DNA of 64,000 bases from Haplodiscus bocki. Taxonomy: Eukaryota. A program made the position numbers and the translations under genes. The stretch is taken from NCBI GenBank assembly GCA_965655095.1, contig OZ296652.1:106020001-106084000 (forward strand), given 5' to 3'. The notes below the pieces were generated by a model. That model was given only the letters and a program-made list of their open reading frames with translations. It did no database searches and was not told the origin of the DNA. Below, piece after piece: positions 4,430-53,059 of the stretch (positions are counted from its first letter, which is position 1; every line of letters starts with the position of its first letter).

Positions 4430-4899
4430 TGACAACACATATATGTATTACAAAAGAGGCAATTGTAAATGGAACACGCAGTTCGGGTGACCTTGGCAAG
4501 TACTGGATAGAGAAAATACTGCACTACTGAATAGAAGAAAAAATTAAAGAACTTCCATTCGGAAAATTTGTGGACGGAAACTAAATTAGGCTGAGAACAG
4601 GCTAAAGTAGAAACCGATCAACTGTCTGGTGAGAAAACATTGTAAACCCTACGTTTATTACATATATGTGTTCTAATGACAACACATATATGTAATAAAC
4701 AAGAGGTAATTGTGTATGGAACACGCAGTTCGGGTGACCTTGGCAAATACTGGATAGAGAAAATACTGAACTACTGAATAGAAGAAAAATTGAAAAAACA
4801 TCCATTCGAAAAATTTGTGGACGGAAACTAAATTGGGCCGAGAACAGGCTAAAGTAGAAGCCGATCAACCGTCTGCTGAGGAAACATTGGTAAACCCTA
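4430..4899. repeat. Tandem duplication of a ~247 bp unit with ~20 bp terminal inverted repeats (second copy truncated)
   Basis: tgacaacacatatatgta...ggaacacgcagttcgggtgaccttggcaa...gtaaaccct starts at 4430 and again at 4677; the first unit ends in gtttattacatatatgtgtt, the reverse complement of the sequence near the unit start. Confidence 0.9.
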
Positions 4900-14832: not shown

Positions 14833-17800
14833 ATCGAAACATTCATGAACCAAAACAAACTTGAAGACCCGTAAGACACTAAAAACGTTGATAGTGGAAT
14901 ATGGAACAACCCTGCCAGAGAAAACTTGGACTAAATTCGAATCGGAGGAATCCTCGAGTTCGAAAATATTGATGCTCGCTCCCGGCAAAGGAGCGACTTC
15001 AATGAATTTGAAAAAGTTTTGGAACACAATAATGTTGAGCTGCAAAAAAAGCGATGCCACACGACTCGGCAAAAACGATACAAACAAATCTAAGAAGGTT
15101 CTCCACAAAGGGCCAAACGCATACCAAAGACGCATGATTCCTTTATCAGCTCGCAAACTGTAGTCTTTTCGGAGGCCCGTCTTCCTGAGTAGGCAGTCAT
15201 CCAAATAGGAAGCAAAACGCGAGACCCTGGCTCTCATCAAGAGACGCCAAATGTTACAGCAAGGTGAAAACCCAAGACGCCCAAGAGTACGCGACGGTGT
15301 TCTGTACATACATGACGGTAACAAATGGACACCTAACGTAGAAAACAGTAACAAGTCGGGCACTAATACTACCTGATCCTCTATGGTCTTCAACCAACTT
15401 GTATTTAACACGTAAGGATTATTGACTACCAGAGAAGAACTAACTTCTCAAACGCTTTCCAAACCGAAAACTGCTACCGTAACATCTGCTTCAGTGAGAC
15501 TTGGCTGAAAGAACACATGTCGGACTCTGCATTATTCCTACCAAGATATGAGGAACACATATAAGACAGATCTAGAGACAGCGGCAACACAAAAGATGGA
15601 GGCGTGCTAATTGCTGTTACCAAAAAACATACCTAACATTGAAATCGCATCTGACTTCGAAAAATGCAAAATATTCTTCCATAACGAAAGTAGCCGAATA
15701 GTTATATACTGCCTCCATAATGACCCAAACACCAGTCGCTGCTCATGGACGACTGAATAGCTTCAGGAAGTTATCTAACTCTTCAGACTAACCCAACTCC
15801 GACACAATGCTGCCCGGGCCTGGAGTGTAGGAGACACCAATTTTGACTCTCACTGTCCAACATTCTTATCATCTTTTGCAGAAGATCAACCGATAACCAA
15901 CAGTCTTTGCGAACGACATTTCCAACAACTCATGTTAACCCGACAGGGAAAAATCTAGACGCCTGCTTTTGCAACATACCGCAAAAAAGCATCAGTGTAA
16001 ACATCGATAACCAAAAGGAACACCGGTTCTCATCTGACCACTCCGCCACTCCGCCTTTTTCGCCAAAAGCAGCACGCACAGTCTTCCAACTGAAACAATA
16101 ACTTAAACCACATCGAACCTAAACTACGACTTTGCATCAATTGCGTACAAAAATGCAAACTGGAACAAAGTCAACCAATACATAATTGGTCACCCTCTTG
16201 ACCCCAACTGCAAAAGCAACGTAGATCTAATGGTAGATCTCTGGTACGAACGGTTTTATGAGATCCTGCAAGATTTTTCTCCCGCCAAAACGAAACACTG
16301 CGTTACTTTAGCCTCTTGGGTTGGGAACGAGTGGTTTCAATTTATAGAGAAACTCAACACTTTGCAGAAGATCTGGAGAACGAAAAGCAAACTTACCCTG
16401 AAAACCAAAGTTGAAGAAACTCACACAAATTTGACATTATCACTAAAAAACGACTACTTCAACTATCAGGCAGAACCGTTCCACGAAGGCAAGTCTTCGG
16501 TCCTCCAGAGGTAGCTGAAATCAATTTCAAAGGCAAACGGTCCAACATTTAAATTCTACTTGGAACAAGGCGTCTCGAAAGATGACTATGAAAAAGGTGA
16601 ATTTTTATTAAGTAGTTTCAATTTGTTTTTTGGCGAAATGACAACCAGGCCTAAAACGAGCTCAAAAAGGAGCCAAAGTTGAGATGCCCATACTTCTCCC
16701 CGAGCAAATTTTAAACAGCAATCTTGAAATTAGACGAAAACAATGCGCTCGGCTCGGACAATAACAGCAATGCGCTCCTCAAAAACCTCGCTGAATCGTT
16801 ACCAAAATCCCTGAGCATGAGTTCTAATCGTTTTGCAAGCAAGGATGCTTCTCCGGCGAAAGCGAAAGTGAGTGTCATAGTCACCTTTTTCAAAGAAGTT
16901 GATACACAAGACGCATCAAAATACAGGGTCGCTAACTTTCTTTCTGCAGTCTCCAATTTCCTAGAAAAAATTATTTTTTAAAAAAAATCGCCCCTAATCC
17001 ACTCAAAGCTATCCCTAAATCAGCATAGCTTCAGACCAAAGATATCTACCACCTCAAATGTGAGCGAAGTTTTTCACCATCTTTATAGTCAACTTGACTC
17101 ACAAACTGTTCAAAATTAACTGCCTTCTATTTCGACTTCCAGAAAGCCTTTGATAATGTTTCCCAACAACGACTTCTCGAAAAACTCTCGAAATTTTTAA
17201 ATGGGCACAATAGTTTCAACCTAATAAGCAGCTACCTAGAATAACAGAGACGAACCCTGAAAGTCAATCATCAAAACACAAGCGAACTAGCAGTACCGAG
17301 CAGGGTCCCAGAAAGATCCTTGCTCGGCCTTCTCTTCTTCCATGTCTACATAAACTACTTGCCCGACATCCTAATGTCAACCAACTTCGGCTACGCAGAT
17401 GACTTCCAATTCAGTGGAGATAACCCGGTTACACTGAATATTGACGTCACATGGCTTTATAGATGGTGTTCCGGTAGTTTCATGACAATGTTTTTTGCGA
17501 AAACCAAATACGGCGCTATCAAAAGCTGCGCTTCAGTATCCTTGTCCAATTACACTTCCGAAAAAGCTAAGACAATGAACGAACTTAGACTTCTGTTTCC
17601 TGAAAAACTATCATCGTCACCTCATGCTTCGAAAAGAGCAGAGACAGCTATCAAAGCCCATCACACTCATAAACTAAACATATCAAAAGCTACACCAGTC
17701 AATCGAAAACAATGCATATGTCTCTTAGTTGTTCCAGTCGTCAGCTACGCATCGATCTCGTGGATGTCCAACAAAGGAGACCTGAGGGTGATCGAAAATG

Positions 17801-18332
17801 TGCAGCGGAAAGCCGTAGCCTGGATACTGGGACCAAACGGGCTCACTTACAAGGAGAAATTGGTTACCCTGGATTTTTCACCTCCCTCGTTATACCACGA
17901 ACTCCCTTCAATCCCAATACGTGCCAAAATCATGAACGGTAACGACATAGACTGGACGATTTATATGTCAAAGTTAGACTACGGAGGTACAAGAAATTCA
18001 CGAACTCGCAACTTTGCCGCCAGACCCATGAGATTCAAAAAATGTGAATCCGACTTCTTGTTTCGAGCCTGCCATCTAGGCAACGTCTTCAACGACTATT
18101 CTCTTCAACGCGAACCACAAAAACAAACTTCTCCAAGTCTACAAAGCCTTTTTGCGGCAAATCCGAGAAACCAACCCCTGCACCTGTCGATTTTTATGTG
18201 ACTGCAGCACTTCTCAAGAAACAAAGAAACTGTAAAAACTCGAACTACCACTGAAGCATTAAGAACAAGCATACGAACGGATTCTTACCAAACCCTTGGA
18301 CATTTGTCCTAAATACTTTTATTATTATTATA
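14480..18332 (+). mobile_element. Near full-length degenerate L2/CR1-type LINE (PHD-finger ORF1; APE endonuclease plus RT ORF2)
   Basis: ORF1 PHD-like CKAC...CLICGSLMH (~14520-14610) and RLGK motif; APE motifs SETWL, GGVLIAV, GDTN, SDH; RT motifs QHSFR, DFQKAFD, SRVPERSLLG, YADD (ORF 17320-18201); 3' (ATT)n tail at ~18321-18332. Confidence 0.9.
14794..14829. repeat. (CT)18 microsatellite inside LINE ORF1
   Basis: Direct read. Confidence 0.95.
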
Positions 18333-40323: not shown

Positions 40324-40893
40324 TGACACTATAACAAACACAAACAAAAAAAACATTTCTGATTTTATTTACGCAAAGGTCAAAATAATATTTCTTTTCG
40401 GTCATTTATTTTTCTCAGCGCACATGTATTTCCAGGCCTGCCATTTTGTAATGCTTAAATTTCCTTCGTATCTGATCGTGATGCAGTAATATTAATCACC
40501 CCCTCGTATCACCGCGACTCTCTAATTTTGCATTTATTGGCTAAGCTTGCGCTGAATATTTGTTTTCGTTTAACCGGATGTTCAAGTCACGCCGCCTATC
40601 GGCAGTTTCTAATGGATGAGGAGTACATTTATAATCGGTCCCAATAACTTTTGAACAACTCACAAATTGCAATCGTTTTAATGCTGTAAACAATTTTGTT
40701 GAAAATCTTTGTAATCATTCCGCTAGAAACCTTCTTCTGAAATGTGAGTTCCCGTAAAACAAAAAATTCAACTCTTTATACCTGCAAAAAATACATTTTC
40801 CGAAAAAAAATACATTAGAAAATTAGCCGCATAATTCAAGTTTTAGCCAAAATTAACCAAAAGGAATAGCTCCCCACGCTAACGGATGCTATA
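40324..40893 (+). repeat. 5' LTR
   Basis: Direct repeat of 52508-53059 (about 10% mismatch in a 165 bp stretch counted by hand); begins TG, ends gatgctata; left edge uncertain by a few bp. Confidence 0.9.
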
Positions 40894-40898
40894 GAAAT

Positions 40899-40910
40899 TG
40901 GTGACAGTGT
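40899..40910 (+). promoter_or_regulatory. Primer binding site
   Basis: TGGTGACAGTGT 5 nt after the 5' LTR; TGG complements tRNA 3'-CCA; primer tRNA not assigned. Confidence 0.7.
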
Positions 40911-41748
40911 GTTTGCGAACCTGTTGCATCCAATTTTTTTAACCTTTTTTGTTGCATTTGCAACTTCAGGCACTATTTGTTTATGGACTTTTCTGAATTT
41001 TTGAGAAAGAAATTGAGATGTCCCCGAGTCTTGGAAATCTGAACCGCTTTTAACTAAGTGAGAACAGGTTAAGTCCTGCTTTTTCAAGCATAGTACCGCC
41101 ATTTGAGCAGATGCAATTCAATTCAAAAAACATTCACGTAGCCGATTTCCATTTCTACCGTACCAGAAGAGCTAGGTTAAGGCTAAGCGTAGTTCCAGTG
41201 TCTTCACTGAGATTTTTGTCTTAAGTTTAACGCAAGTGCCTGTTTAAACTTTCCAACCGTCGTTGCGACGTGGCTCTATTCGTCTCAAAACCGTGACCTT
41301 TTATGTTTTTCACGCAATAATTTCCGCTTTCGTCCGGTCCCGTCCCACTCACAATCCCGTGTTAATTTTGTCAGCTTGTTCAGACGCAAATTCCGCTCGA
41401 TGCTCAGTGAGGTTCCGGTCAACCGGTCCCCGCATCCATTATTTTCCTTCACACCGAATTTCTTGGCCAACATTACGCTAACCATTTCCCAGAATCACTC
41501 ACTTGGCCCTGTTTGCAGTTTAGTCCTCCCGTTTTCGCGAAAGATCGCCAACATTTCTCCCTGCTAGCTGCTGCCTGGATAATTCAATTGCGTCTTTTGA
41601 CTTTGAATCAACGCCTAGCGACTGTCTTGCCGTCCCGTTTGTCCGCTCCGCTCGCCATTCCGCCCACTTTTGCCCCCGTCCGCACCACCTCGACGTTAAG
41701 TTCCGTAACCATCACGCCCGCTCCGTCTCGTTAAACGCTCTGCACTTC

Positions 41749-41985
41749 ATGCCAACACCTCCTGCAGAACCAGAGTCGCCTCCCCGTCCCGTTTTGTCCC
41801 GCATGCCTCCACCTGTCTACGCCGAAGTTTTTTCAATCTCGGAAAACAACTACGCTCCCGCTCAATTCACATTCCAATCTATTGACCGTTTCCTTCTCGC
41901 AGCTTTGTGTATTTGCGTCATCTGTTTTCTCCTTCTCAATTTGACTTTCGCGTTGTACCTCTATTTTCAATATTTAATTCTCTGA
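41749..41985 (+). CDS. Small leader ORF: Pro-rich, PPxY motif, C-terminal transmembrane helix (78 aa)
   Basis: ATG-initiated open ORF MPTPPAEPESPPRPVLSRMPPPVYAE...FLLAALCICVICFLLLNLTFALYLYF. Confidence 0.5.
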   Translation: MPTPPAEPESPPRPVLSRMPPPVYAEVFSISENNYAPAQFTFQSIDRFLLAALCICVICFLLLNLTFALYLYFQYLIL

Positions 41986-42316: not shown

Positions 42317-43311
42317 TTGAGATTGACTGCACCCGCTCCTGCCCCTAACTATTCATGCCTTCTTCCGGCATCCTTCACAGGTCTTACCGATGTCGAAGAC
42401 TATCTTATACAATTTGAGGCTGTTTCCACGCTTTCCAATTGGGTCGCTCTGACTTCCGACCCCGCCAGCATTTCTTTTCTGCTGGCCTCACCGGAGATGC
42501 CCTCACTTTTTAACGGTCCCTCACCACTGCCCAAAAGGCGACTACGATGAACTCAAGCGTCTCTTTCGGCGATGATACAAACCCAATGCCGACGTTTTGA
42601 AGACCCAAGTGAAGTCCTAATGCCAATTATCTGGCCAAGATGTGTCCGTTTTTTACCGGATACTCCGTGACCGCAGGAAAAGCTTATACCGACAATGCCG
42701 TGCGCAATGAGCTCCTCCACACCACATTCATCGAAGGGTTGGCCAATTCCGTCGTTCGGTGGGGAGTCCGAAAAGCGAAACCAACAGTGGTTGAGGACGC
42801 ACTTCGATTGGCACTTGAAATGCAATCCTGTTTGAACCTCCATGGCCAGCAGTCCGACACTCCAGCGGCGTCTATTAACAATTTGACTGGTCCTTCGTCG
42901 TCCCAAAGTGAACTTTTTTCAGATCTCATTTTGACCATCAAGGAAGAAGTTAAACGAGTCGTACGTTAACGAAGTGGTCCCCCGCAACAAGGCCGCAGTG
43001 GTCAACGTGCTACCAGCAGCCGATCGCAACAATCGGAGTCGAACAACCATACGAATCAAAATCAGCGCCGCACTTGGATCTCAAACCAAAGAAATTGCAC
43101 CGATAGCCGGGGTAACACCCCCAATAGAAGCCAATCGCACTATTCCAAGAATCGCATGAGTTTCAACAATTCTGGCACCAACTCCGCAAAAGAATGCCAA
43201 CGTTGTCATCGTAAGAATTTTGACACCAAAGATTGTAAAACCTGCTTCAAGTGTGGGCGCGTGGGACATTTTTGGCGTGACTGCCGCAGTCGGTCCCAAC
43301 CTTTAAACTAC
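42317..43311 (+). pseudogene. gag: gag (capsid plus CCHC nucleocapsid), frameshifted
   Basis: FTGLTDVEDYLIQFEAVSTLSNW, FIEGL...ALRLALEM, knuckles CQRCHRKNFDTKDC and CFKCGRVGHFWRDC. Confidence 0.85.
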
Positions 43312-43361
43312 AGCAACCTGCGCATGAGCGAGACGGCTGCGCAGTGGATCCCCATCGTCTC
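43302..43361 (+). promoter_or_regulatory. -1 ribosomal frameshift signal: T TTA AAC plus H-type pseudoknot
   Basis: Heptamer 43302-43308 in gag phase; stem 1 CTGCGCA/TGCGCAG (43318-24/43338-44); stem 2 GAGACG/CGTCTC (43330-35/43356-61); the -1 frame is open through to protease DTG at 43455. Confidence 0.8.
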
Positions 43362-45740
43362 ACCAATGAACCAGCGATTCTCAATTCTGTCATAGACAAC
43401 AAAAGTGTCTGTGTGAATCTTGAGGTCTGTAGCTCCCCAGTTGGAACAGTTTGCGATACTGGCGCTAGTGTGTTTAGCTAACGTTAGCATTAGCTAACGG
43501 CTTTTGAAACGACTTCCTGTCAACTTCCAGAACCAGCTTCAACCAGCCCATCGTCGACTTTTGGCCGCAAATCAAGCTCAAATATCTGCTTCGGGTACAG
43601 TAACTTTGCCTATATCACTCGCTAGCAACCGATACCAGCAACAGTTCATTGTGTTGGAGTCCTCAGAAGCTGATTGTCTTCTTGGTTTAGACTTCCTTGA
43701 AGACAATCACTGTGATGCTCTTTTCTCTAGCATGCAACTCAAGTTCCCTAATTCTCAGACAGTTCCTTTATTTCATAGCCGCAAAGCTCTTTGGGATACT
43801 TCTCCTGAACAAGTTAAGGTAATTGCACGAGAAACCACACTCATTCCAGCTGGTCATGAGGCTGTGATCCTGGGTGAGCTCCTCACCCAGAGTTTTCCGG
43901 GGAAATCCGAGGGTACTTTTGAACCATCACCCGAATTCTGCGACAAACACCGGCTATTGGCCTTCAGTTCTCCTTGTGAGTCTTGAGAGATGAACCGGCT
44001 CGCCTCATTAATCCTGTTGAAAATGTAACTCCTTATAAGGGCATGTCCCTGGGAAGTTTCTCCGCGGTTAGGTCTGCAGAAGTAGCGGCAATGAATCGCG
44101 TCATCGCAGACCAACCTGACAACCCCCAGAGTCAAATTCCTGACAAATGCGACGTTAAAGAAGTACTCAAACAAACTCAGTCTTCCATGGATCCACAGAT
44201 TCGTGCACAATTCGCGCAGCTCCTTCGTATATTTTCCGATGTGTTCTCAAAATTAGAATGGGATATTGGCAAGCGCGACCTTGTTCCGCACAAGATTGAC
44301 CTTTACCCGGGCTCGAAACCGGTCAAGTTACCCAATCGCCGGATGCCCATGCATTTCAAAAAGGATCTACGTCAAAAGATCAACAAGTTCTTAGAACAGA
44401 AATTGATAACGCCATAACACAGTTCCTATGGCTCACCAGTTATGTTGGGCCCGAAGAAAAAGGTAAACTCCGATTGGTCATTGACTATCGACAACTGAAC
44501 ATGCAAACAGTTAGATCTTGCTGGCGATTGCCTTCTGTTGACGAAACTTTTGACAATTTGGAAGGAAGTTGCTACTTTTCAACTATCGACATGTCATGGG
44601 GTTTCTACAAGCTCCCTTTAGAAACTAGTAGTCAGGATTATACAGCATTCAGTACTCCGTTTGGATATTTCAAACGGCTTGTTATGCCAATGGGACTCAC
44701 CGACAGCCCTCCAGTTTTCCAGTCTCTGATGGAAAAAGTCCTAGTCGTCCTTACTTGGAAAACCATCATCCTGTACTTAGATGATTGAATTACCTATTCT
44801 CGAACTGCCGAAGAACACACTGAGAAACTTCGAGAGGTATTCCAACGATTCAAAGGTGCGAACTTAAAAATCAATCCGCTTAAATGTGAGTTTTTCCGAC
44901 AACATGTGCTTTTCCTGGGTCACATTGTTAGTCGAGATGGGATTCAAGCCGATCCAGCTACAACATCAGCTGTGCGCCAGTATCCAGTACCGAAGTCGGT
45001 TACTGAGGTTAAAAGTTTCTTGGGACTCTGTTCTTAATACCAACGGTACGTTCGCGATTTCGCCGCAACTGCTCGACCTCTTCATCAGCTAACAGAAAAA
45101 ATGAAAGAATTCCACTGGCACCAACCCGAAGGCCAAAAGGCTTTTGAACAACTGAAAGATTGTCTCACGTCAACGCCCATTTTAGCCATCCCTTCGATGA
45201 ACAAACGAGCCCTTCATCCTATACATTGATGCAAGTCAATTTGCCATCGGCGCTGTCCCTGCCCAAGAACAGAATGGCTTCGAGCGAGTCATTTGCTACG
45301 CCTCCAAACCTCTCAACAAAGCTAAAAGTCATTACTCGACAACCAGGCGAGAACTTTTAGCTATAGTCAATTACACAAAACACTTCAAGCACTAGCTTAT
45401 AGACCGACGATTCAAGATCATTACGGACCAGAGAACGCTCCAGTGGTTCCATAATTTTAAGGATCCCGACGCCTTAACTGCACGCTGGCTCAAAAAACTC
45501 GCTGCCTTTGACTATGAGATTGAACATCGAAGTGGTAAAAGCATTCGACATGCTGACTGCACGTCACGACTCGCGGTAACAACCGCCGCTCTCAACATGA
45601 CTGCAACCATGGATGTTAACGCTTCCGTAGTTGGTCAGCCGAACCATTCCTCGCCAAATCTTCCTTCTTCTAACAGTCTCACCCCACCAGCACAACCATC
45701 GCATAGCACCACCATACCACGGGAAACCGTTCAAAGCAAT

Positions 45741-45919
45741 CAGACTGATGATGAGCAGTCTGGAGTCAAACACGGCCACGAGGCCAGCGCAAACAACAGT
45801 AAGACTGATGATGAGCAGTCTGAGGTCAGAAATGGCAACGAAGCCGTAGAAAACCCGAATGGTCAGACTGATGATGAGCGGTCTGGGATTACACACGGCC
45901 ACGAAGCCAGTGCAAACAA
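45741..45919 (+). repeat. Three in-frame 60-63 bp tandem repeats in the pol linker
   Basis: Units at 45741, 45801 and 45864 encode QTDDEQSGVKHGHEASANNS / KTDDEQSEVRNGNEAVENPNG / QTDDERSGITHGHEASANK. Confidence 0.9.
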
Positions 45920-45932
45920 ACTGGTATCACAA

Positions 45933-46346
45933 TTCGCGGTAATCGAACACCAAGGAGGGTTGCTGGATTTTCCAAACTCAATAGCCCACTGTATTTCCCT
46001 TGACTTTAAGCTGGGGGCTGGTCTCGCAAAACAAATAAAAGAGAAGTTTCCAAGTTATTGCCCGACGAAAAAGGAGTACAAGCAACAAGTACTGCACGCC
46101 CAGTAGTTGGGTCATGATAAATTTGTTTTTCACTTGATTGTGAAACCTCGCTTTTTTCACAAACCTACATACCGCTCCCTGAGAAAAGCCTTTCTGGCTT
46201 TGCGTGATCATTGGAAGTTCTACAGAATCGACAAAATGGGTATTTCACATCTATCATGTGGTTTAGATAAACTTGATTGGACTGAAGTACAAAAAACTAT
46301 CCACGAAAAATTCAGGGATTCCAAGCCCAAATTAACTGTTTTTACC
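45933..46346 (+). other. TARG1/OARD1 (Poa1p-like) macrodomain embedded in pol, one in-frame stop at 46104
   Basis: SIAHCISLDFKLGAGLAKQIKEKF...FVFHLIVKPRFFHKPTYRSLRKAF...LSCGLDKLDWTEVQ...LTVF aligns with TARG1 SLAHCISEDCRMGAGIA..FKKKF...IYYLITKK...HKPTYENL...IGCGLDRLQWENV...ITVY. Confidence 0.9.
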
Positions 46347-48674
46347 CTGAAAACTCCGTTCGAACGCCCCACGTCTGGTGATCAAACTACAGAAGTCGAT
46401 GTACAGAAAGCACAGACAAGCGATACTGGTATCAATGAGGAACTTACTTGGCTACGCAAGCAATCTCGTCCTCCCTGTTCCCACTTACAGGGTCTCTCTC
46501 ACTATGTATGGAAGATGTGGAATCTTTTTGATTAGCTGACAATCCGTCACGGCAAATTTGCCGGAAGCATGAAAATCTCAAAACCGGTCAAATGATCTTT
46601 CAACAAGTCGTCCCACCTGCATTAGTCCAAATTATCATCTCTGCTCTCCACTTTGGTCAAACAAGTGCCCTTCTAGGAGTCACGAAGACTTTAGAAAAAG
46701 TACGATCCCGTTTTTACCGGCCCGCTTACAAACGCGACGTTGAAGTGTTTGTTGCCAGTTGCTTTGTTTGTCAGAGACGCAGCAGTCCCAAGAAGAAACA
46801 TATCCATAATCTATGGGCATGGAAGCCCAGTTTTCCATTCTCCACGGTCGGTATTGGTTTCTTAGGCCACCTTCCGCCTTCCGCCGGAAATCAATACTTT
46901 CTTCCGATCGGTGATCTTTTCACCAAGTGGCACGAAGCGATCGCGCTACCAGATCAGTCAGCTCTGACAACAGCTAAAGCCCTCATGGATCATTGGATCA
47001 CCCGCTTTGGCTACCCCGACAGCCTTCAATCCGACCAAGGACGTAATTTTGAAACTAAACTTTTCACAAGTCTTATCACACTGCTCCAATTAGATGAAAC
47101 ACGCACAACCTCCTTTCACCCACAATCCAATGCAGTTATTGAGAGGACAAAACGTACACTACTGAAAATGTTGGCTAAAACGACGTATAAAAATCAGCGC
47201 AATTGGTCTGAATTGCTTCCAAATGTAATGCTTGCATATCGCACATCTGTCCAGGAGTCAACCAGCTACACGCCTTTTTCCCTACTTTTCGGCCACGAAG
47301 CGACCCTCCCAATAGTCTTCCAGTTCCCCCCGCGCAGTGACGCTACCTGGAAAATTTATCATGAGTACGTGGCTGAGACACGGCTCCGCTTTCACGCGGC
47401 CTATAAACAGGCCCGTTAGTACCTAAAGGGTCAACAGAAACGTCAACATGCGCTTTATAACGCTAAAGTGCATGGCTCCACATACACCGAAGGTCAATTG
47501 ATACTCCTCCACAATCCGTCAACCCCAAGACGCAGTCCTAAACTTCATTCTTTTTGGCGCGGTTCATACAAAATCACACAAGTCATCAGTGAGATGACTT
47601 ACAAAATTCGTGAGATAGAAACTAACAAAGAGTTAATCGTCCACTACGATCGCATGAAATTTTTCCGTTCGACTCCTGGTGGTTTTGTACCTCCAGCGAA
47701 CACAATTTTTGCACCAATGCAACCGCCCAATGAGCTCGCTTCCAATTCTTTTCCTGCGAACTGTCATTCTTCTTTCTGTGAAGCCCCAGTAACTTGTACT
47801 TCAACAGTTTACCCAGTTCCTGTATCAAGTTCTGTCCCATTAATTCAACCAGCACCGCCCACCACTTTTGCGTCGTCACCAGTTGCTAACGACAATTATC
47901 CCGAGCCCTCTGTGCCGCTGGAGGAAGACACATTTCCAAACCGCTCATCTGATTCCACCTTGTCTTATTCCTCTCATGTTCCTGAAGTCGTTAACTCCCG
48001 AAATCGTTCCTTCAACACTGCTGTTTCCTCCACGTCTTTTCTTGATGACCCATTTCCGGAGCAGCACATCGTCGCTCCTCTTTCCCGGTCCGTTTTCCCC
48101 ACAAATACTTCAACACCAACCAAAACCCTCACGCAACGGCCACTTCTAACTGACGCTCTCCTTAATCATGCATCTTCGCGCATGACCACACTTTCTCCAA
48201 TACGCTGTGCTGATGATAATTGTCCCCGTCTATTACGCAGCAACACCGTCAATCAAAGGCACGCCACCGCTCAACGCATCCTCAATAAACAACTCCCGCA
48301 CGAACTCAAGAATGAATTTGAACTTGAAACAACGCAAACCGCGGGATCTAGTTGTCAATCGATTGAAACAACGCAGTTCACGTCAAAACCGCTGTGCGCA
48401 ACCGTCCAATCCGTCGCAAACTCCATTTTTGCTCATTCGGCAAAAACAATGGTCCAAAAACCGGTCACAAATAGCCAGCGGACCAAACATACAGAAAAAA
48501 CATGTCTTCCTTTTCGTCGGTATCATTAAAAAACGGTTCCCCAACGAATCGGATTGCTTACACTTTTGTACCCATACTAATCAATTCATGCATTCTCTTG
48601 TTTGTACCATATCGGTCTTCTGGTCTCTTCACTCAAATGTATCGCCGTTTTTATTGTTTAGATGTCGCACCTTT

Positions 48675-51002
48675 ATGCTCACGTCCTTTTTGTTTTGTTT
48701 CCTTCTCGCATCCAATGTCCCTGCGAGACAGTTTGTTCGCGATGGTCCTCGTACAGATGGCACTCCAAACATCCAAAGGGCTCTGCGTTCATTTATAACT
48801 ATCAAGCCGTCACTTCGGGAAGTGAAAGCAAAGTCCGTATTTTCTCTCCTTTTCCACGGCCGCCACCAGTTGACTTTACAGCAGTCGATTGGCCTATTAA
48901 TCTTGTCAGTAATATTCAACACAAACTAACCTTTTTGCCCTTTCTAGAAACAGTTGCGTCCGATGAGCTATGCCCAATTGCTATATACACCTCCCAGGAT
49001 CGAGCCAATGGCCTCCGAGAAAGTATTGAATATCGTGTCCACCTGATTGCGGATGAGCGTTCTGCTATTGTACAAGATTACGCTGAACTCTTACATGTTG
49101 CATTTTCGTTTGCACCACTCTCAAGGCAGCCTGCTTCTTTTGGCACTCATCATCATCGACAACAACGACATGTTCCCGCACTCATGGCAGCCTCTGGTGT
49201 GGCTGGCCTTGTTCTAGGAAACCCGATACGAAATGCTGCCTGCAAAGCCTTTTCCATCTTTAGTTTATGTAGTGATAACTCCGCTTTGAAAAACAATGTG
49301 CGCAATCTACTTCAGCGTCAGGCTACGTTTGAGAAAAGTCTCCATCTTGTTCAAGAAGCAAATGCCGAGAAATGTTTCCTTCTGGGCACAGAAATCGTTT
49401 ATACCCAGAAAAGCGTTGAAGCCTTACGAGACGTTGTCGATGCTCATTTGAACGCTACAGGAGAGGCCATTCGTCAACTCGATTCCCGGTCGATTAACAT
49501 GAGTAATTGCATGAGTATCCAGCGTCAATTCGAAATCATTGTAGACAAAGTCCACAATTACACGTCCTACTTGGACCTTGCTTAAATGCAATTGAAATCT
49601 TATCGTGCTTCATTTGTGTCATAAAAGACCTCCATGTATTCCGCGGTGTCCTCGCTTTCTTCTGGATTTGCTCCACCTAATTTCCTCATACCCGAGGAAC
49701 TTGCTGCAATCGTCGAGGACCTTTCCGCCGAAGAGATCCGCCGAGGTACCAAGTTGACGCCCGCGGTTCAAGTTGGTTTTGGTGCTACCTACTAGGAAGT
49801 CCAAATCGTGCTCGAAGTCACTGTTTTGCGAGAAGGCTCCTCCATTGTCTTAGGTATACCGGTGAACTCAAAATCGTCCACCTTCGATGTCTATCGCGCC
49901 ATTGATTTGCATCAAGCTAACGAGGATGGCACGACAGCTTCGGTTTATCGTTTTTCTCATGAGTTAGTGGCCATCGCTACTGATAACTCAAAGTATGCTG
50001 AATTCAGTGCTGCCTTTCTCAGCCAATGTTTTGGAACAAGTCGACCTAAATTATGCCCTAAAGGTTTTTCCACCAAAACGGATGAGACTCGTCTTTGTCT
50101 AACTTCTCTATTTTATGAGTACAACATCCCAGCTCTTCGCAATTGTTTAGTGGCCTCTGTCTTGTTGCTTGAGGCCCCGCAAGCTTCGTATTTAACGGAT
50201 GGTCTTAATCGCGTCATCTCTCGTACTGCACGTTTACAGGTCAAAAACGATACCGATGGTTTACCTGTATCTATATCCACACTCCAGTGTCAAGCCTGTC
50301 TTTTTCGACCCAGTTGTTCGTCTACCCTCACCTTCAATCATGGGGATCTTCTTCTTAGCCCCGACAAAGACTTTTGTGAATTCCGACCCGAGCCGTTCGT
50401 TGCATCTGTCAAACTCACACTTTCTTTGGCTGCAGTCTCTAATACCCTAACTCCTGCCAGCGCCGATTTGAACGTGTATTCATTTGGCGAAGCCCGCAGA
50501 TACATTGTTTCTAGCGTACAGTTGGAGCTGGCTGGCATCCTTGACTCACGTGAAAACAATGACCAACGAGGATCTTCGCACAGTGTCCCAACCAATTTCA
50601 CACTACTACACGACAATTTCTCCTTCCACCAGCCGTGCTTTAGTAGATAACATGCCTATGCGGATTGCTTTCTCGCTGGCATATGTATCCATGACTATTT
50701 CTGTTTTGTCTTTCAGCATCAGTTTTACGCTCTTCCGGCGTCAGTGGCAACGTTTCTTTGAACAACCACAACGGTTCTTCCGCAGCACGCACGGCCGGTT
50801 CCTACACACTGTTCCTAACCTCAACGGCGATGATAACGATGTAACAACAGCTTTCCTGTACATGACGGATGCTGAATTCCTAGCTATCAAAAGATTGGCC
50901 CGCGAAGTCCATGCTCGAAGTGACACAGAAATAACCTCATGCGTTCCTCCTCGCAACCCTTTTTATCCTGACTTAACTCATGTTTACACCTCGGCGACAT
51001 AA
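48675..51002 (+). pseudogene. env: env: class I (F-protein-like) fusion glycoprotein, several stops and frameshifts
   Basis: Signal peptide MLTSFLFCFLLAS; RQQR cleavage (49157-49168) then fusion-peptide-like HVPALMAASGVAGLVLG; heptad region; Cys-rich region; TM IAFSLAYVSMTISVLSFSISFTLF followed by RR; cytoplasmic tail. Polypyrimidine plus AG acceptor at 48645-48661. Confidence 0.85.
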
Positions 51003-51054
51003 TTTCAAACCTCTACGTCTATCATTTACCCGTGTTCAGCCACCGAGATCAGTT

Positions 51055-51369
51055 TTCCGATACCTTAGTATCGAGTTTATTTTTTTTTCACGTATCCTAC
51101 CGATGCCTTTTCCACCGAGAACAGTTTAGGTCCACAGTCTTAGAACTGTGAGTGTAACATCTGAATTAGGTTTCCCTTCTTGTCCTCCATCTCTGCTAAA
51201 GAGGTTTCAGGCTTTTCCGTGGTTTTCCAAAAGTTTCTGCTGGTTTTCAGTGGTTCAGTGCGTAACCCCGCTACGCTTTCCGTGTTTTAACACGAGACTG
51301 TGCTTCCGTAGACTAATTCTACGAGTTTAAGCGTTCGCAGCTCTGCTGCCGTTCCGTGTTTAACACGAG
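51055..51369 (+). promoter_or_regulatory. Array of ~6 short hairpins with shared flanks TC-C[stem-loop]G-AG
   Basis: CGATAC/GTATCG (51055-75), CACAGT/ACTGTG (51131-52), degenerate CGTGG/CCAAA (51215-33), CGTGT/ACACG (51278-96), CGTAGA/TCTACG (51304-25), CGTGT/ACACG (51352-69). Confidence 0.65.
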
Positions 51370-51576
51370 ATAATTTTTGCTTCCTTCTTTTTTGGCACCC
51401 ACCTTTATGTCGTTTGAACGATTTGAATATGCTTTTGTTTCACGTCTTCTTCTCTTCCTGGTGCCTCTTCTGTCGCCGAGGCCCGGCCTGGATCTATCGT
51501 CTTTCTTCTCGACCCAACCCCCTATCGTGTTATATGATGCAACAGCAACTCCGACAGCCTTCTAGTTTTTCCTGAC

Positions 51577-52443
51577 ATGGGCAATAAACGATCTAGTTTT
51601 TTTGCTCCAAAGTCAACCGTTTGGTCCCCTTCCAAACCTCTCCAATCACTGGCCGTCAACACTGAACCCATGGTATGCAACGCCCCTCTCTAACCATCAC
51701 CGATGCCTCCGCCTATCTTGCCTGACATCACAGATGTCGGTGTCTTAACATCGCCAGTTCCGACATCTACAGTGTCCTGTCACACTGACAGCTTTGCTGA
51801 TTTAGATTTTGCTGCCCTGTTAGAAGAAAACGAAGAAGTAGACTGTCTCCAGCAGACCCTCACAGCCACACGAGCAGAATTAGGAAAGCAAAAGGCTTTG
51901 TTCATCCGTTTAGAGCGTGCGTTCAACAAATTGAAGGAAAACTACGAGCAAATCAGTCAATCGCTTATTGCGCAAACCCGCGAAAACAAATTGGACGCCC
52001 GAAATTTTGCAGACCTCAAGGACACCATATCTGACCTCCGCAAACAAAACGCCCTGCTCCAATCGGACCAACACGCTCTCCCAATACTCCATCAGCTTTT
52101 GGCTACGTTGACTGCTCCAGATATAGTTTATATGGACAATGTCAATCCCAGTACATTCCGCTATACAGTTCTGGCTTCCCAGCGCTCCACACCCGGACCT
52201 GACCTCAAAAAAAACTACTTAACATTGATGTGTTTGTGTCACCTGGATCGCCATCCCGGTATTGATCGACATATATCTCAACAACTCATTGCCGTCCATA
52301 ACATTTTAACTGACCCTGTGACTCGAGATATTTACGATTGCTGTGGTGTGCGTGCTGTGACGCGAAAAGATACTACCCATTTTTGCCACCTCTGTAATCC
52401 CCTCCCCCATCTTTACGAAACCCTCGATGACCTTTGGAAATGA
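51577..52443 (+). CDS. Accessory ORF: MGxxxS N-terminus, coiled coil, C-terminal DnaJ J-domain (open 51703-52443; in-frame TAA at 51691)
   Basis: YTVLASQRSTPGPDLKKNYLTLMCLCHLDRHPG...HNILTDPVTRDIYDCCG aligns with DnaJ YEILGVSK...EIRKAYKRLAMKYHPDRN.G...YEVLTDSQKRAAYDQYG; heptad-rich segment precedes it. Confidence 0.8.
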
Positions 52444-52507: not shown

Positions 52508-53059
52508 TGTAATATTACAAACACAAACGGAAAACATTTCTGATTTTGTTTACGCAAAAGTCAAATTAATATTTCTTCCCCGTCATTCAATTTTCTCAGC
52601 ACACATTTATTTCCAGGCCTGCCATTTTGTAAAGCTCAAATTTCTTTCGTATTTAATCGTGATGCAGTAACATTATTCACCCCTCGTATCACCGCGACTC
52701 CTTATACTGCATCTTTGGCTAAACTTGCGCTGAATAATTGTTTTCGTTTAACCGAATGTTCAAATCACGCCGCCTATCGGCAATTTCTAATGGATGAGAA
52801 GTACATTTATAATCGCTCCCAATAATTTTTGAACAAATCACAGTTTGTAATCGTTTTAATGCTGTAAACAATTTTGCTGAAAATATTTGTAATCATTCCG
52901 CTGTAAACCTTCATCTGAAATGTGAGTTCCCGTATAACAAAAAATTCAACTCTTTATACTTGCAAAAGATACGTTTTCTCTTCGAAAATTAGCCGCAAAA
53001 ATCAAGTCTTAGCCACAATTAAGCAAAACAATTAGCTCCCTACGTTACGGGATGCTATA
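52508..53059 (+). repeat. 3' LTR
   Basis: Starts TGTAATA after the PPT; direct repeat of 40324-40893. Confidence 0.9.

Follow-up and report, generated by a model that had tools for sequence, protein, structure and literature searches.

The window, a 64,000-nucleotide stretch of the Haplodiscus bocki genome (genome size 1.5 Gb), carries an array of small RNA hairpins between a broken env gene and the signal of a 3′ splice site. The array's existence is confirmed, and its extent exceeds that first described. The comparative evidence presented below marks it as an uncatalogued, selected RNA hairpin element in a layout akin to that of complex retroviruses. Our preferred reading, to which we assign a probability of about 0.45, is that the array is a multivalent response element for the fourth protein of the retrotransposon in which it resides, and that it controls splicing and/or export of the element's RNA.

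The host of the array is a decayed 12.7-kb env-bearing Ty3/Gypsy LTR element, and all genes of the window copy are broken. As its LTR pair is only ~90% identical, the insertion is old. With errantiviruses the element shares LTRs, gag, the pol order PR-RT-RH-IN and an F-type env after pol. Its parts, in window coordinates and with a slash marking splice junctions, are as follows.

40330 to 40893, + strand: 5′ LTR, identical to the 3′ LTR at 449 of 499 aligned sites (~90%)
40742 to 40749, + strand: predicted splice donor AT/GTGAGT in the LTR; second copy at 52920–52927
40899 to 40907, + strand: PBS-like sequence TGGTGACAG, identical in 7 of 7 leaders read
41040 (approximate) to 41212, + strand: C-stem-AG hairpins in the leader, intact at 41196, with two decayed ones upstream of it
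41749 to 41985, + strand: small open reading frame upstream of gag, read by eye; PPxY-like motif, hydrophobic stretch or helix at the C-terminus
42330 to 48530 (both approximate), + strand: gag (zinc knuckle) and pol (PR-RT-RH-macro-like-IN), with stops and frameshifts
48662 to 51002, + strand: env, an F-type class I fusion protein, broken; stop codon at 51000–51002
51030 to 51369, + strand: hairpin array, between the env stop and the 3′ splice-site signal
51030, 51058, 51101, 51133, 51185, 51218, 51281, 51307 and 51355, + strand: nine C-stem-AG slots
51260 and 51337, + strand: two unflanked hairpins
51370 to 51443, + strand: pyrimidine tract and 3′ splice-site position, decayed in the window copy
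51444 to 52443, + strand: second exon of the fourth gene (SH3-like barrel, Pro-rich linker, coiled coil, J-domain, Cys-rich tail)
52510 (approximate) to 53059, + strand: 3′ LTR

A young copy of the element contains the same gag and pol domains and a weak Macro match; the macro-like domain lies between RNase H and integrase (~45900–46250; its Pfam Macro match in L129, a young copy, has E 0.018 and is below the cut-off), and three 57-nt repeats are found upstream of it at 45740–45919. The env of a young relative matches Baculo_F (E 4.5e-7), and its neighbours are paramyxovirus-F-like clusters (score 0.92). Open reading frames similar by eye to the small one preceding gag are present in families A, B and D of related elements, and its product could be a budding or cell-fusion helper. 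Several of the LTRs L121–L126, the ends of which were mapped inexactly, start with TATAAC or TGTA and finish with TATA or TTA(A), not TG...CA. Family D (L117–L119) contains an extra 1.2-kb stretch between the fourth gene and the LTR with an open frame of 200–260 codons. Outside the element, the window contains a 318-codon open frame (17245–18201) without a Pfam match and a 220-nt direct repeat (4430–4896).

Five hairpins with TC-C...G-AG flanks are perfect in the window (at 51058, 51133, 51281, 51307 and 51355) and have the stems originally reported for them; a sixth, described as degenerate, was located at 51218. The array had been thought to comprise six hairpins within ~315 nt, and this is where its description changes: it extends over 51030–51369 and contains nine C-stem-AG slots, five of which are intact in the window copy, plus two unflanked hairpins. 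The 'ccaccgag' repeat noticed among the hairpins is present and represents the 3′ arms of two further hairpins (51030–51045 and 51101–51117). The C..AG flank of each of the nine slots is kept in 20–28 of 29 sister copies, slot U7 of the sister-copy alignment, which was mis-registered, not entering any count. Some units have A at position −2. A bulged C below the stem, as originally proposed, is less likely than a C(−1):G(+2) pair around a bulged A, or than unpaired flanks: mean-field probabilities in a young family-A copy are 0.02–0.74 for C(−1):G(+2) compared to 0–0.10 for the bulged C.

The density of flank-matched hairpins, for which the original prediction had proposed a comparison with shuffled sequence, is far above chance. 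The interval 51003–51442 contains 5 such hairpins, while 2000 dinucleotide shuffles of the same interval gave a mean of 0.002 and a maximum of 1, with none reaching 5. When the post-hoc choice of signature was corrected for by accepting any shared 3+3-nt signature, the shuffles gave at most 2. The signature is strand-specific, with 7 occurrences on the + strand and 0 on the − strand of the whole window. Where sites were chosen by flank alone, a 5-bp stem was present at 5/51 sites in the spacer versus 4/1027 in the rest of the element, and at 9/62 versus 2/963 sites in a young copy. The folding z of the array region is −2.8 for the + strand and −1.6 for the − strand, and the region folds as separate short hairpins. 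Plain hairpin density is raised modestly (8 vs 6, 6 vs 6, 7 vs 6 and 5 vs 5 for the array bin versus the best other 400-nt bin), such that the array bin ranks first or tied first, narrowly, in all four young copies. The special feature of the array is its recurring signature, not hairpin density. A 14-bp long-range helix around the array (50989–51002 with 51468–51481) was rejected, as its 3′ arm differs in all 17 sisters, of 29, in which it was located.

The stems had been described as covarying. This is true between units and between families, but not in homologous alignment columns: two Watson-Crick types are found in 1 of 62 stem columns among the 29 sisters, and compensatory changes in 3 of 71 columns, one of them probably misaligned, in 13 hairpins of 38 family-A spacers. 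The suggested covariation check across family copies was thus nearly blank because the sisters represent one burst in which stems are conserved rather than swapped. The 29 sister copies are 84–89% identical, and their private changes are scattered, with almost no compensatory pairs.

Selection on RNA structure, which the original prediction had put forward, is nevertheless borne out by two other comparisons. First, a divergent group of six copies differs from the reference copy at 2/171 stem and flank sites versus 82/250 loop and linker sites (p 7e-19), whereas private changes, which serve as a neutral control, amount to 0.045 and 0.057 per site per copy in the two classes, respectively. The window's own subfamily differs from the reference at 8/150 versus 21/204 sites, which is not significant (p 0.12). 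As judged from these substitution patterns, stems and flanks are under purifying selection between subfamilies. Second, in an arm-swap test of loop-type units from related families, whose cores were picked regardless of their outer pairs, 49 of 54 outer pairs were Watson-Crick compared to a mean of 30.5 after swapping (0 of 10000 swaps reached the observed value). The diversity of stems is found between units, with 20 distinct basal 4-bp stems collected, although these were chosen for pairing.

An array was found in this position in all seven families examined by representatives (A, B, C, D, D2, F and G). The six further families were reached via env and fourth-protein searches, of which the top candidates alone were scored; their env is 57–63% identical where measured, and in each of them hairpins occupy ~400–500 nt ahead of the fourth gene. 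Family B carries C-stem-AG units (6/37 vs 5/970), family C carries C-stem-UGU units (4/38 vs 0/281) together with loop-type units, and families D, D2, F and G carry CG-UNUC-CG loop hairpins. Signature types therefore differ between lineages inside one host genome. The commonest loops (TTTC, TGTC, TATC and TCTC) are also the top 5′ flanks of the flank-type units, from which we infer that one UNUC/CG junction is presented in two pairing registers. A strict scan found no intact unit in 5 of 41 loci (L064, L090, L093, L096 and L097), of which the inspected ones are truncated or decayed. At three loci (L062, L071 and L128), near-identical arrays and env genes precede fourth genes that share only 56–70% identity. 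This pattern points to recombination at the acceptor and to rapid evolution of both the coiled coil and the J-domain. A metagenome scan for relatives in other organisms gave 5 weak coiled-coil-type matches, and scans of viral contigs gave none.

The array is bracketed by splice signals. In all 7 LTRs analyzed (5 families), the last 250 nt contain just one GT[AGT]AG, and AT stands directly before it; in element bodies, AT stands there in 6/43 cases. On the acceptor side, YAG/G is found in 23 of the 28 sister copies with a match. Among 39 other family-A loci, 20 have AG/G, 10 have AG/A-ATG and hence their own start, 5 have other AG/A, and 4 lack the AG. AG/G is also present at 19/20 loci of families B–D2 and at 31/31 further loci, in frame in 30 of them. 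The frame of the fourth gene begins one base past the acceptor; most families lack an ATG ahead of the first protein domain. If splicing takes place as these signals and their phase predict, the LTR donor AT and the acceptor G would form an AU/G start codon of the fourth gene. A start codon completed by splicing to AU is described for the env of the springer subclade in the available text of 10.1101/2023.08.03.551782, and candidate env acceptors were found in three of the four families checked here (AU/G in frame in two, AG/ATG in the third). With the donor in the LTR and the acceptor behind the array, the array is predicted to be present in genomic and env RNA and absent from the fourth-gene mRNA. 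Four sequencing runs behave as genomic DNA, their contigs continuing into the flanks at LTR ends; none of 15 joints inspected in them, of 55, connects donor and acceptor, which speaks neither for nor against splicing.

The splice layout seems to extend past the families read. Five database proteins (P0062, P0041, P0071, P0052 and P0019), 39–51% identical to any fetched locus, have F-C-F-R just before the barrel; F-C-F-R is the in-frame reading of the acceptor, and a loose version of it occurs in 24 of 40 barrel matches. A start at the first ATG (51578), which would give an N-myristoylated MGNKRS, was considered and rejected: the reading frame upstream of it is both open and conserved, and this Met is missing from another subfamily. 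In 3 of the 7 LTRs L121–L127, the donor is located ~20 nt ahead of AATAAA/ATTAAA. The LTR donor may thereby keep 5′ polyadenylation in check, and host genes could acquire the AU exon from solo LTRs.

The fourth protein is 310–370 residues long and, in the window copy, its gene is interrupted by a stop near 51691. Nine representatives are 22–70% identical to the first; all nine match Pfam DnaJ, and eight have the HPD motif. The structure model comprises an N-terminal beta barrel, a 107-residue helix and a J-domain, and J-domains are at the top of the fold search with this protein. The 55-residue barrel, modelled alone (pLDDT 74), matches SH3-like folds, among them Spt5 KOW (Z 7.4, rmsd 2.8, 56 aligned residues) and NusG (Z 6.8). 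KOW and Tudor domains are small five-stranded barrels of this type. The Z of 7.4 is middling, and Tudor and chromo domains, which bind proteins, tie with KOW. A PDB profile search with the barrel gave designed-repeat matches only, and an atlas search gave no usable match. Within families A and B, the barrel is more strongly conserved than any other domain (73, 79 and 43% compared to 51, 71 and 31% for the J-domain). In the protein tree, a branch with 99/97 support separates the C-stem-AG families from the rest, but as the tree contains two label changes only and kin share labels, this is clustering and does not demonstrate co-evolution. Public collections also contain relatives that are <55% identical to any retrieved sequence.

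Combining these observations, we propose the following model. The single LTR donor would have two alternative partners, one at env and the other being the acceptor behind the array; with the second, the AU/G join would create the start codon of the fourth gene. The array would be retained in genomic and env RNA and lost from the fourth-gene mRNA. The N-terminal SH3-like barrel of the fourth protein would bind the repeated hairpins, with the coiled coil providing multivalency; the idea of a multivalent cis-element, part of the original prediction, finds support in the repeated, selected hairpins. Bound beside the pyrimidine tract, the protein would damp its own acceptor and/or license the export of array-bearing RNA, and its J-domain would recruit Hsp70 to remodel the complex. 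A bolder version of this model, which is possible but doubtful, holds that an env-bearing retrotransposon lineage evolved a complete Rev/RRE-like switch without any input from retroviruses. In this switch, a J-domain protein that recruits Hsp70 would read a lineage-specific hairpin code located ahead of its own splice site, and the code would have changed by re-pairing of UNUC/CG from loop into flank, separating the regulators of co-resident families.

The partner of the hairpins could instead be a host factor. Host proteins assembled on the hairpins and pyrimidine linkers would constitutively weaken the acceptor, export the RNA in the manner of a CTE, or block nonsense-mediated decay of env and genomic RNA. 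The RSV stability element, which is located behind a stop codon, shields RNA from nonsense-mediated decay. The array starts 28 nt 3′ of the env stop and has U/C-rich linkers. The UNUC/CG junction is common to the families, and loop- and flank-type units share their top 4-mers, as a shared host binder would have it. MPMV CTE and RSV direct repeats, which resemble the array as cis-elements at the env 3′ end, are 3′ export elements with host binders (PMC12789967, available text). Yet the signature type shifts between lineages within the same host, and the array has no CTE-style long rod with internal loops and no Rfam match. This reading is unlikely but a serious rival.

About as unlikely, and likewise a serious rival, is that the array is a packaging or assembly signal, in which the Gag nucleocapsid binds the hairpins and the leader and 3′ copies act jointly. 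Gag does bear a zinc knuckle, and the motif directly follows the PBS in family A (up to 3 copies: 3 each in young L121 and L122, 1 in L127, and the window copy at 41196) and in family B (2 in L123). Families C, D and D2, however, have 0 leader copies, and loop-type cores extend by two pairs in 21/23 cases inside spacers but in 0/36 outside. Retroviral packaging signals lie in the leader and occur in unspliced RNA only; here, leader copies are present in families A and B, and the main array is 3′ of env. The array would sit on env mRNA too, which is normally not packaged. The UUYCGU loops of coronavirus SL5, a proposed and unvalidated packaging signal, are similar in being repeated small hairpins with a UUYC/CG-like motif (PMC7925004, available text), but they belong to an unrelated virus, are located 5′ and are hexaloops, making this a resemblance only.

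The remaining readings fare worse. That palindromic or TTCCG sites act at the DNA level, as an enhancer or internal promoter of the fourth gene or as ssDNA hairpins during reverse transcription, is very improbable. TTCCG, which we take to be an ETS-like core, recurs in both motif classes, and internal promoters are described for Tor elements (PMC4402516, available text), but half-sites match within units and differ between units, the flanks are strand-asymmetric, and transcripts from an internal promoter would lack the start codon's AU; G-U pairs outnumber A-C mismatches inside helices by 7 to 2, counts too small for a test. Still less probable is internal initiation or reinitiation at the downstream frame, which the original prediction had entertained. 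The array does lie between two open reading frames, and one subfamily (10 loci) has an ATG just past the acceptor, but the conserved acceptor right behind the array separates it from an open reading frame that is open from that acceptor onwards, and most families encode the barrel ahead of any in-frame ATG. Some units, such as both CGTGT/ACACG ones, are plain duplicates, but the notion that the array is a neutral by-product of local duplications has a negligible probability given that it is contradicted by purifying selection, by different stems under one signature and by recurrence in 7 families.

The preferred reading, a response element for the fourth protein, draws a parallel to HIV-1 Rev/RRE, HTLV Rex/RexRE and MMTV Rem/RmRE in its predicted layout. 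In these systems a structured cis-element is contained in unspliced and env RNA, and the regulator is made from a fully spliced mRNA (PMC12789967, available text). Unlike the RRE, which is one branched domain, the array consists of independent 13–20-nt hairpins, is non-coding and lies behind env. The fourth protein, in turn, is composed of a barrel, a coil and a J-domain with no kinship to Rev detected, and its binding and export functions are predictions. The MPMV CTE is a single 234-nt stem-loop in all viral mRNAs and is bound by NXF1 (PMC12789967, available text), whereas the array would be spliced out of one mRNA and displays neither a long rod nor NXF1-binding internal loops nor a match to an Rfam model.

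The closest precedent among Ty3/Gypsy elements is CERV of C. elegans Cer1, an extra protein made from a spliced mRNA and required for genomic RNA export, with a Cys-rich loop and a proposed multimeric state (PMC10309623, available text). CERV has exons in common with Gag and contains G-like and M domains, and Cer1 is without a real env, whereas the window element combines a candidate RNA element with an F-type env and a J-domain. Term searches of the available text of that paper gave no stem-loop or response element. The 'ancient' errantiviruses of PMC13524379 are alike in their LTR-gag-pol-env order, PR-RT-RH-IN arrangement and F-type env, to which the window element adds a fourth gene, predicted to be spliced, and the hairpin array; 'DnaJ' and 'J-domain' have 0 occurrences in the main text and 7 supplementary files of that source.

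Iron-responsive elements possess a bulged C, a 5-bp stem and a CAGUGN loop, while the loops of the array vary in length and sequence. With E up to 5, the Rfam search suggested originally matched no family in the array region, nor any in 7 relatives with E up to 2, and gave chance-level matches outside the array. In the literature covered, which excludes most subscription journals, no report of the fourth gene or the array was found.

How retrotransposons export unspliced RNA and balance it with spliced mRNAs is understood for few LTR elements, and in the case of Cer1 the protein is known but its RNA target is not named in the available text (PMC10309623). Here, a candidate cis-element and a candidate trans-factor occur together in at least 7 families with different signatures, and cognate versus non-cognate binding is accessible with short RNAs and a 55-residue domain. 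Even with a host protein or Gag as the partner, the array would be an uncatalogued selected RNA element. If the proposed reading is true, these retrotransposons would represent a convergent complex-retrovirus-type switch with a chaperone domain, and would offer a natural set of orthogonal hairpin-protein pairs.
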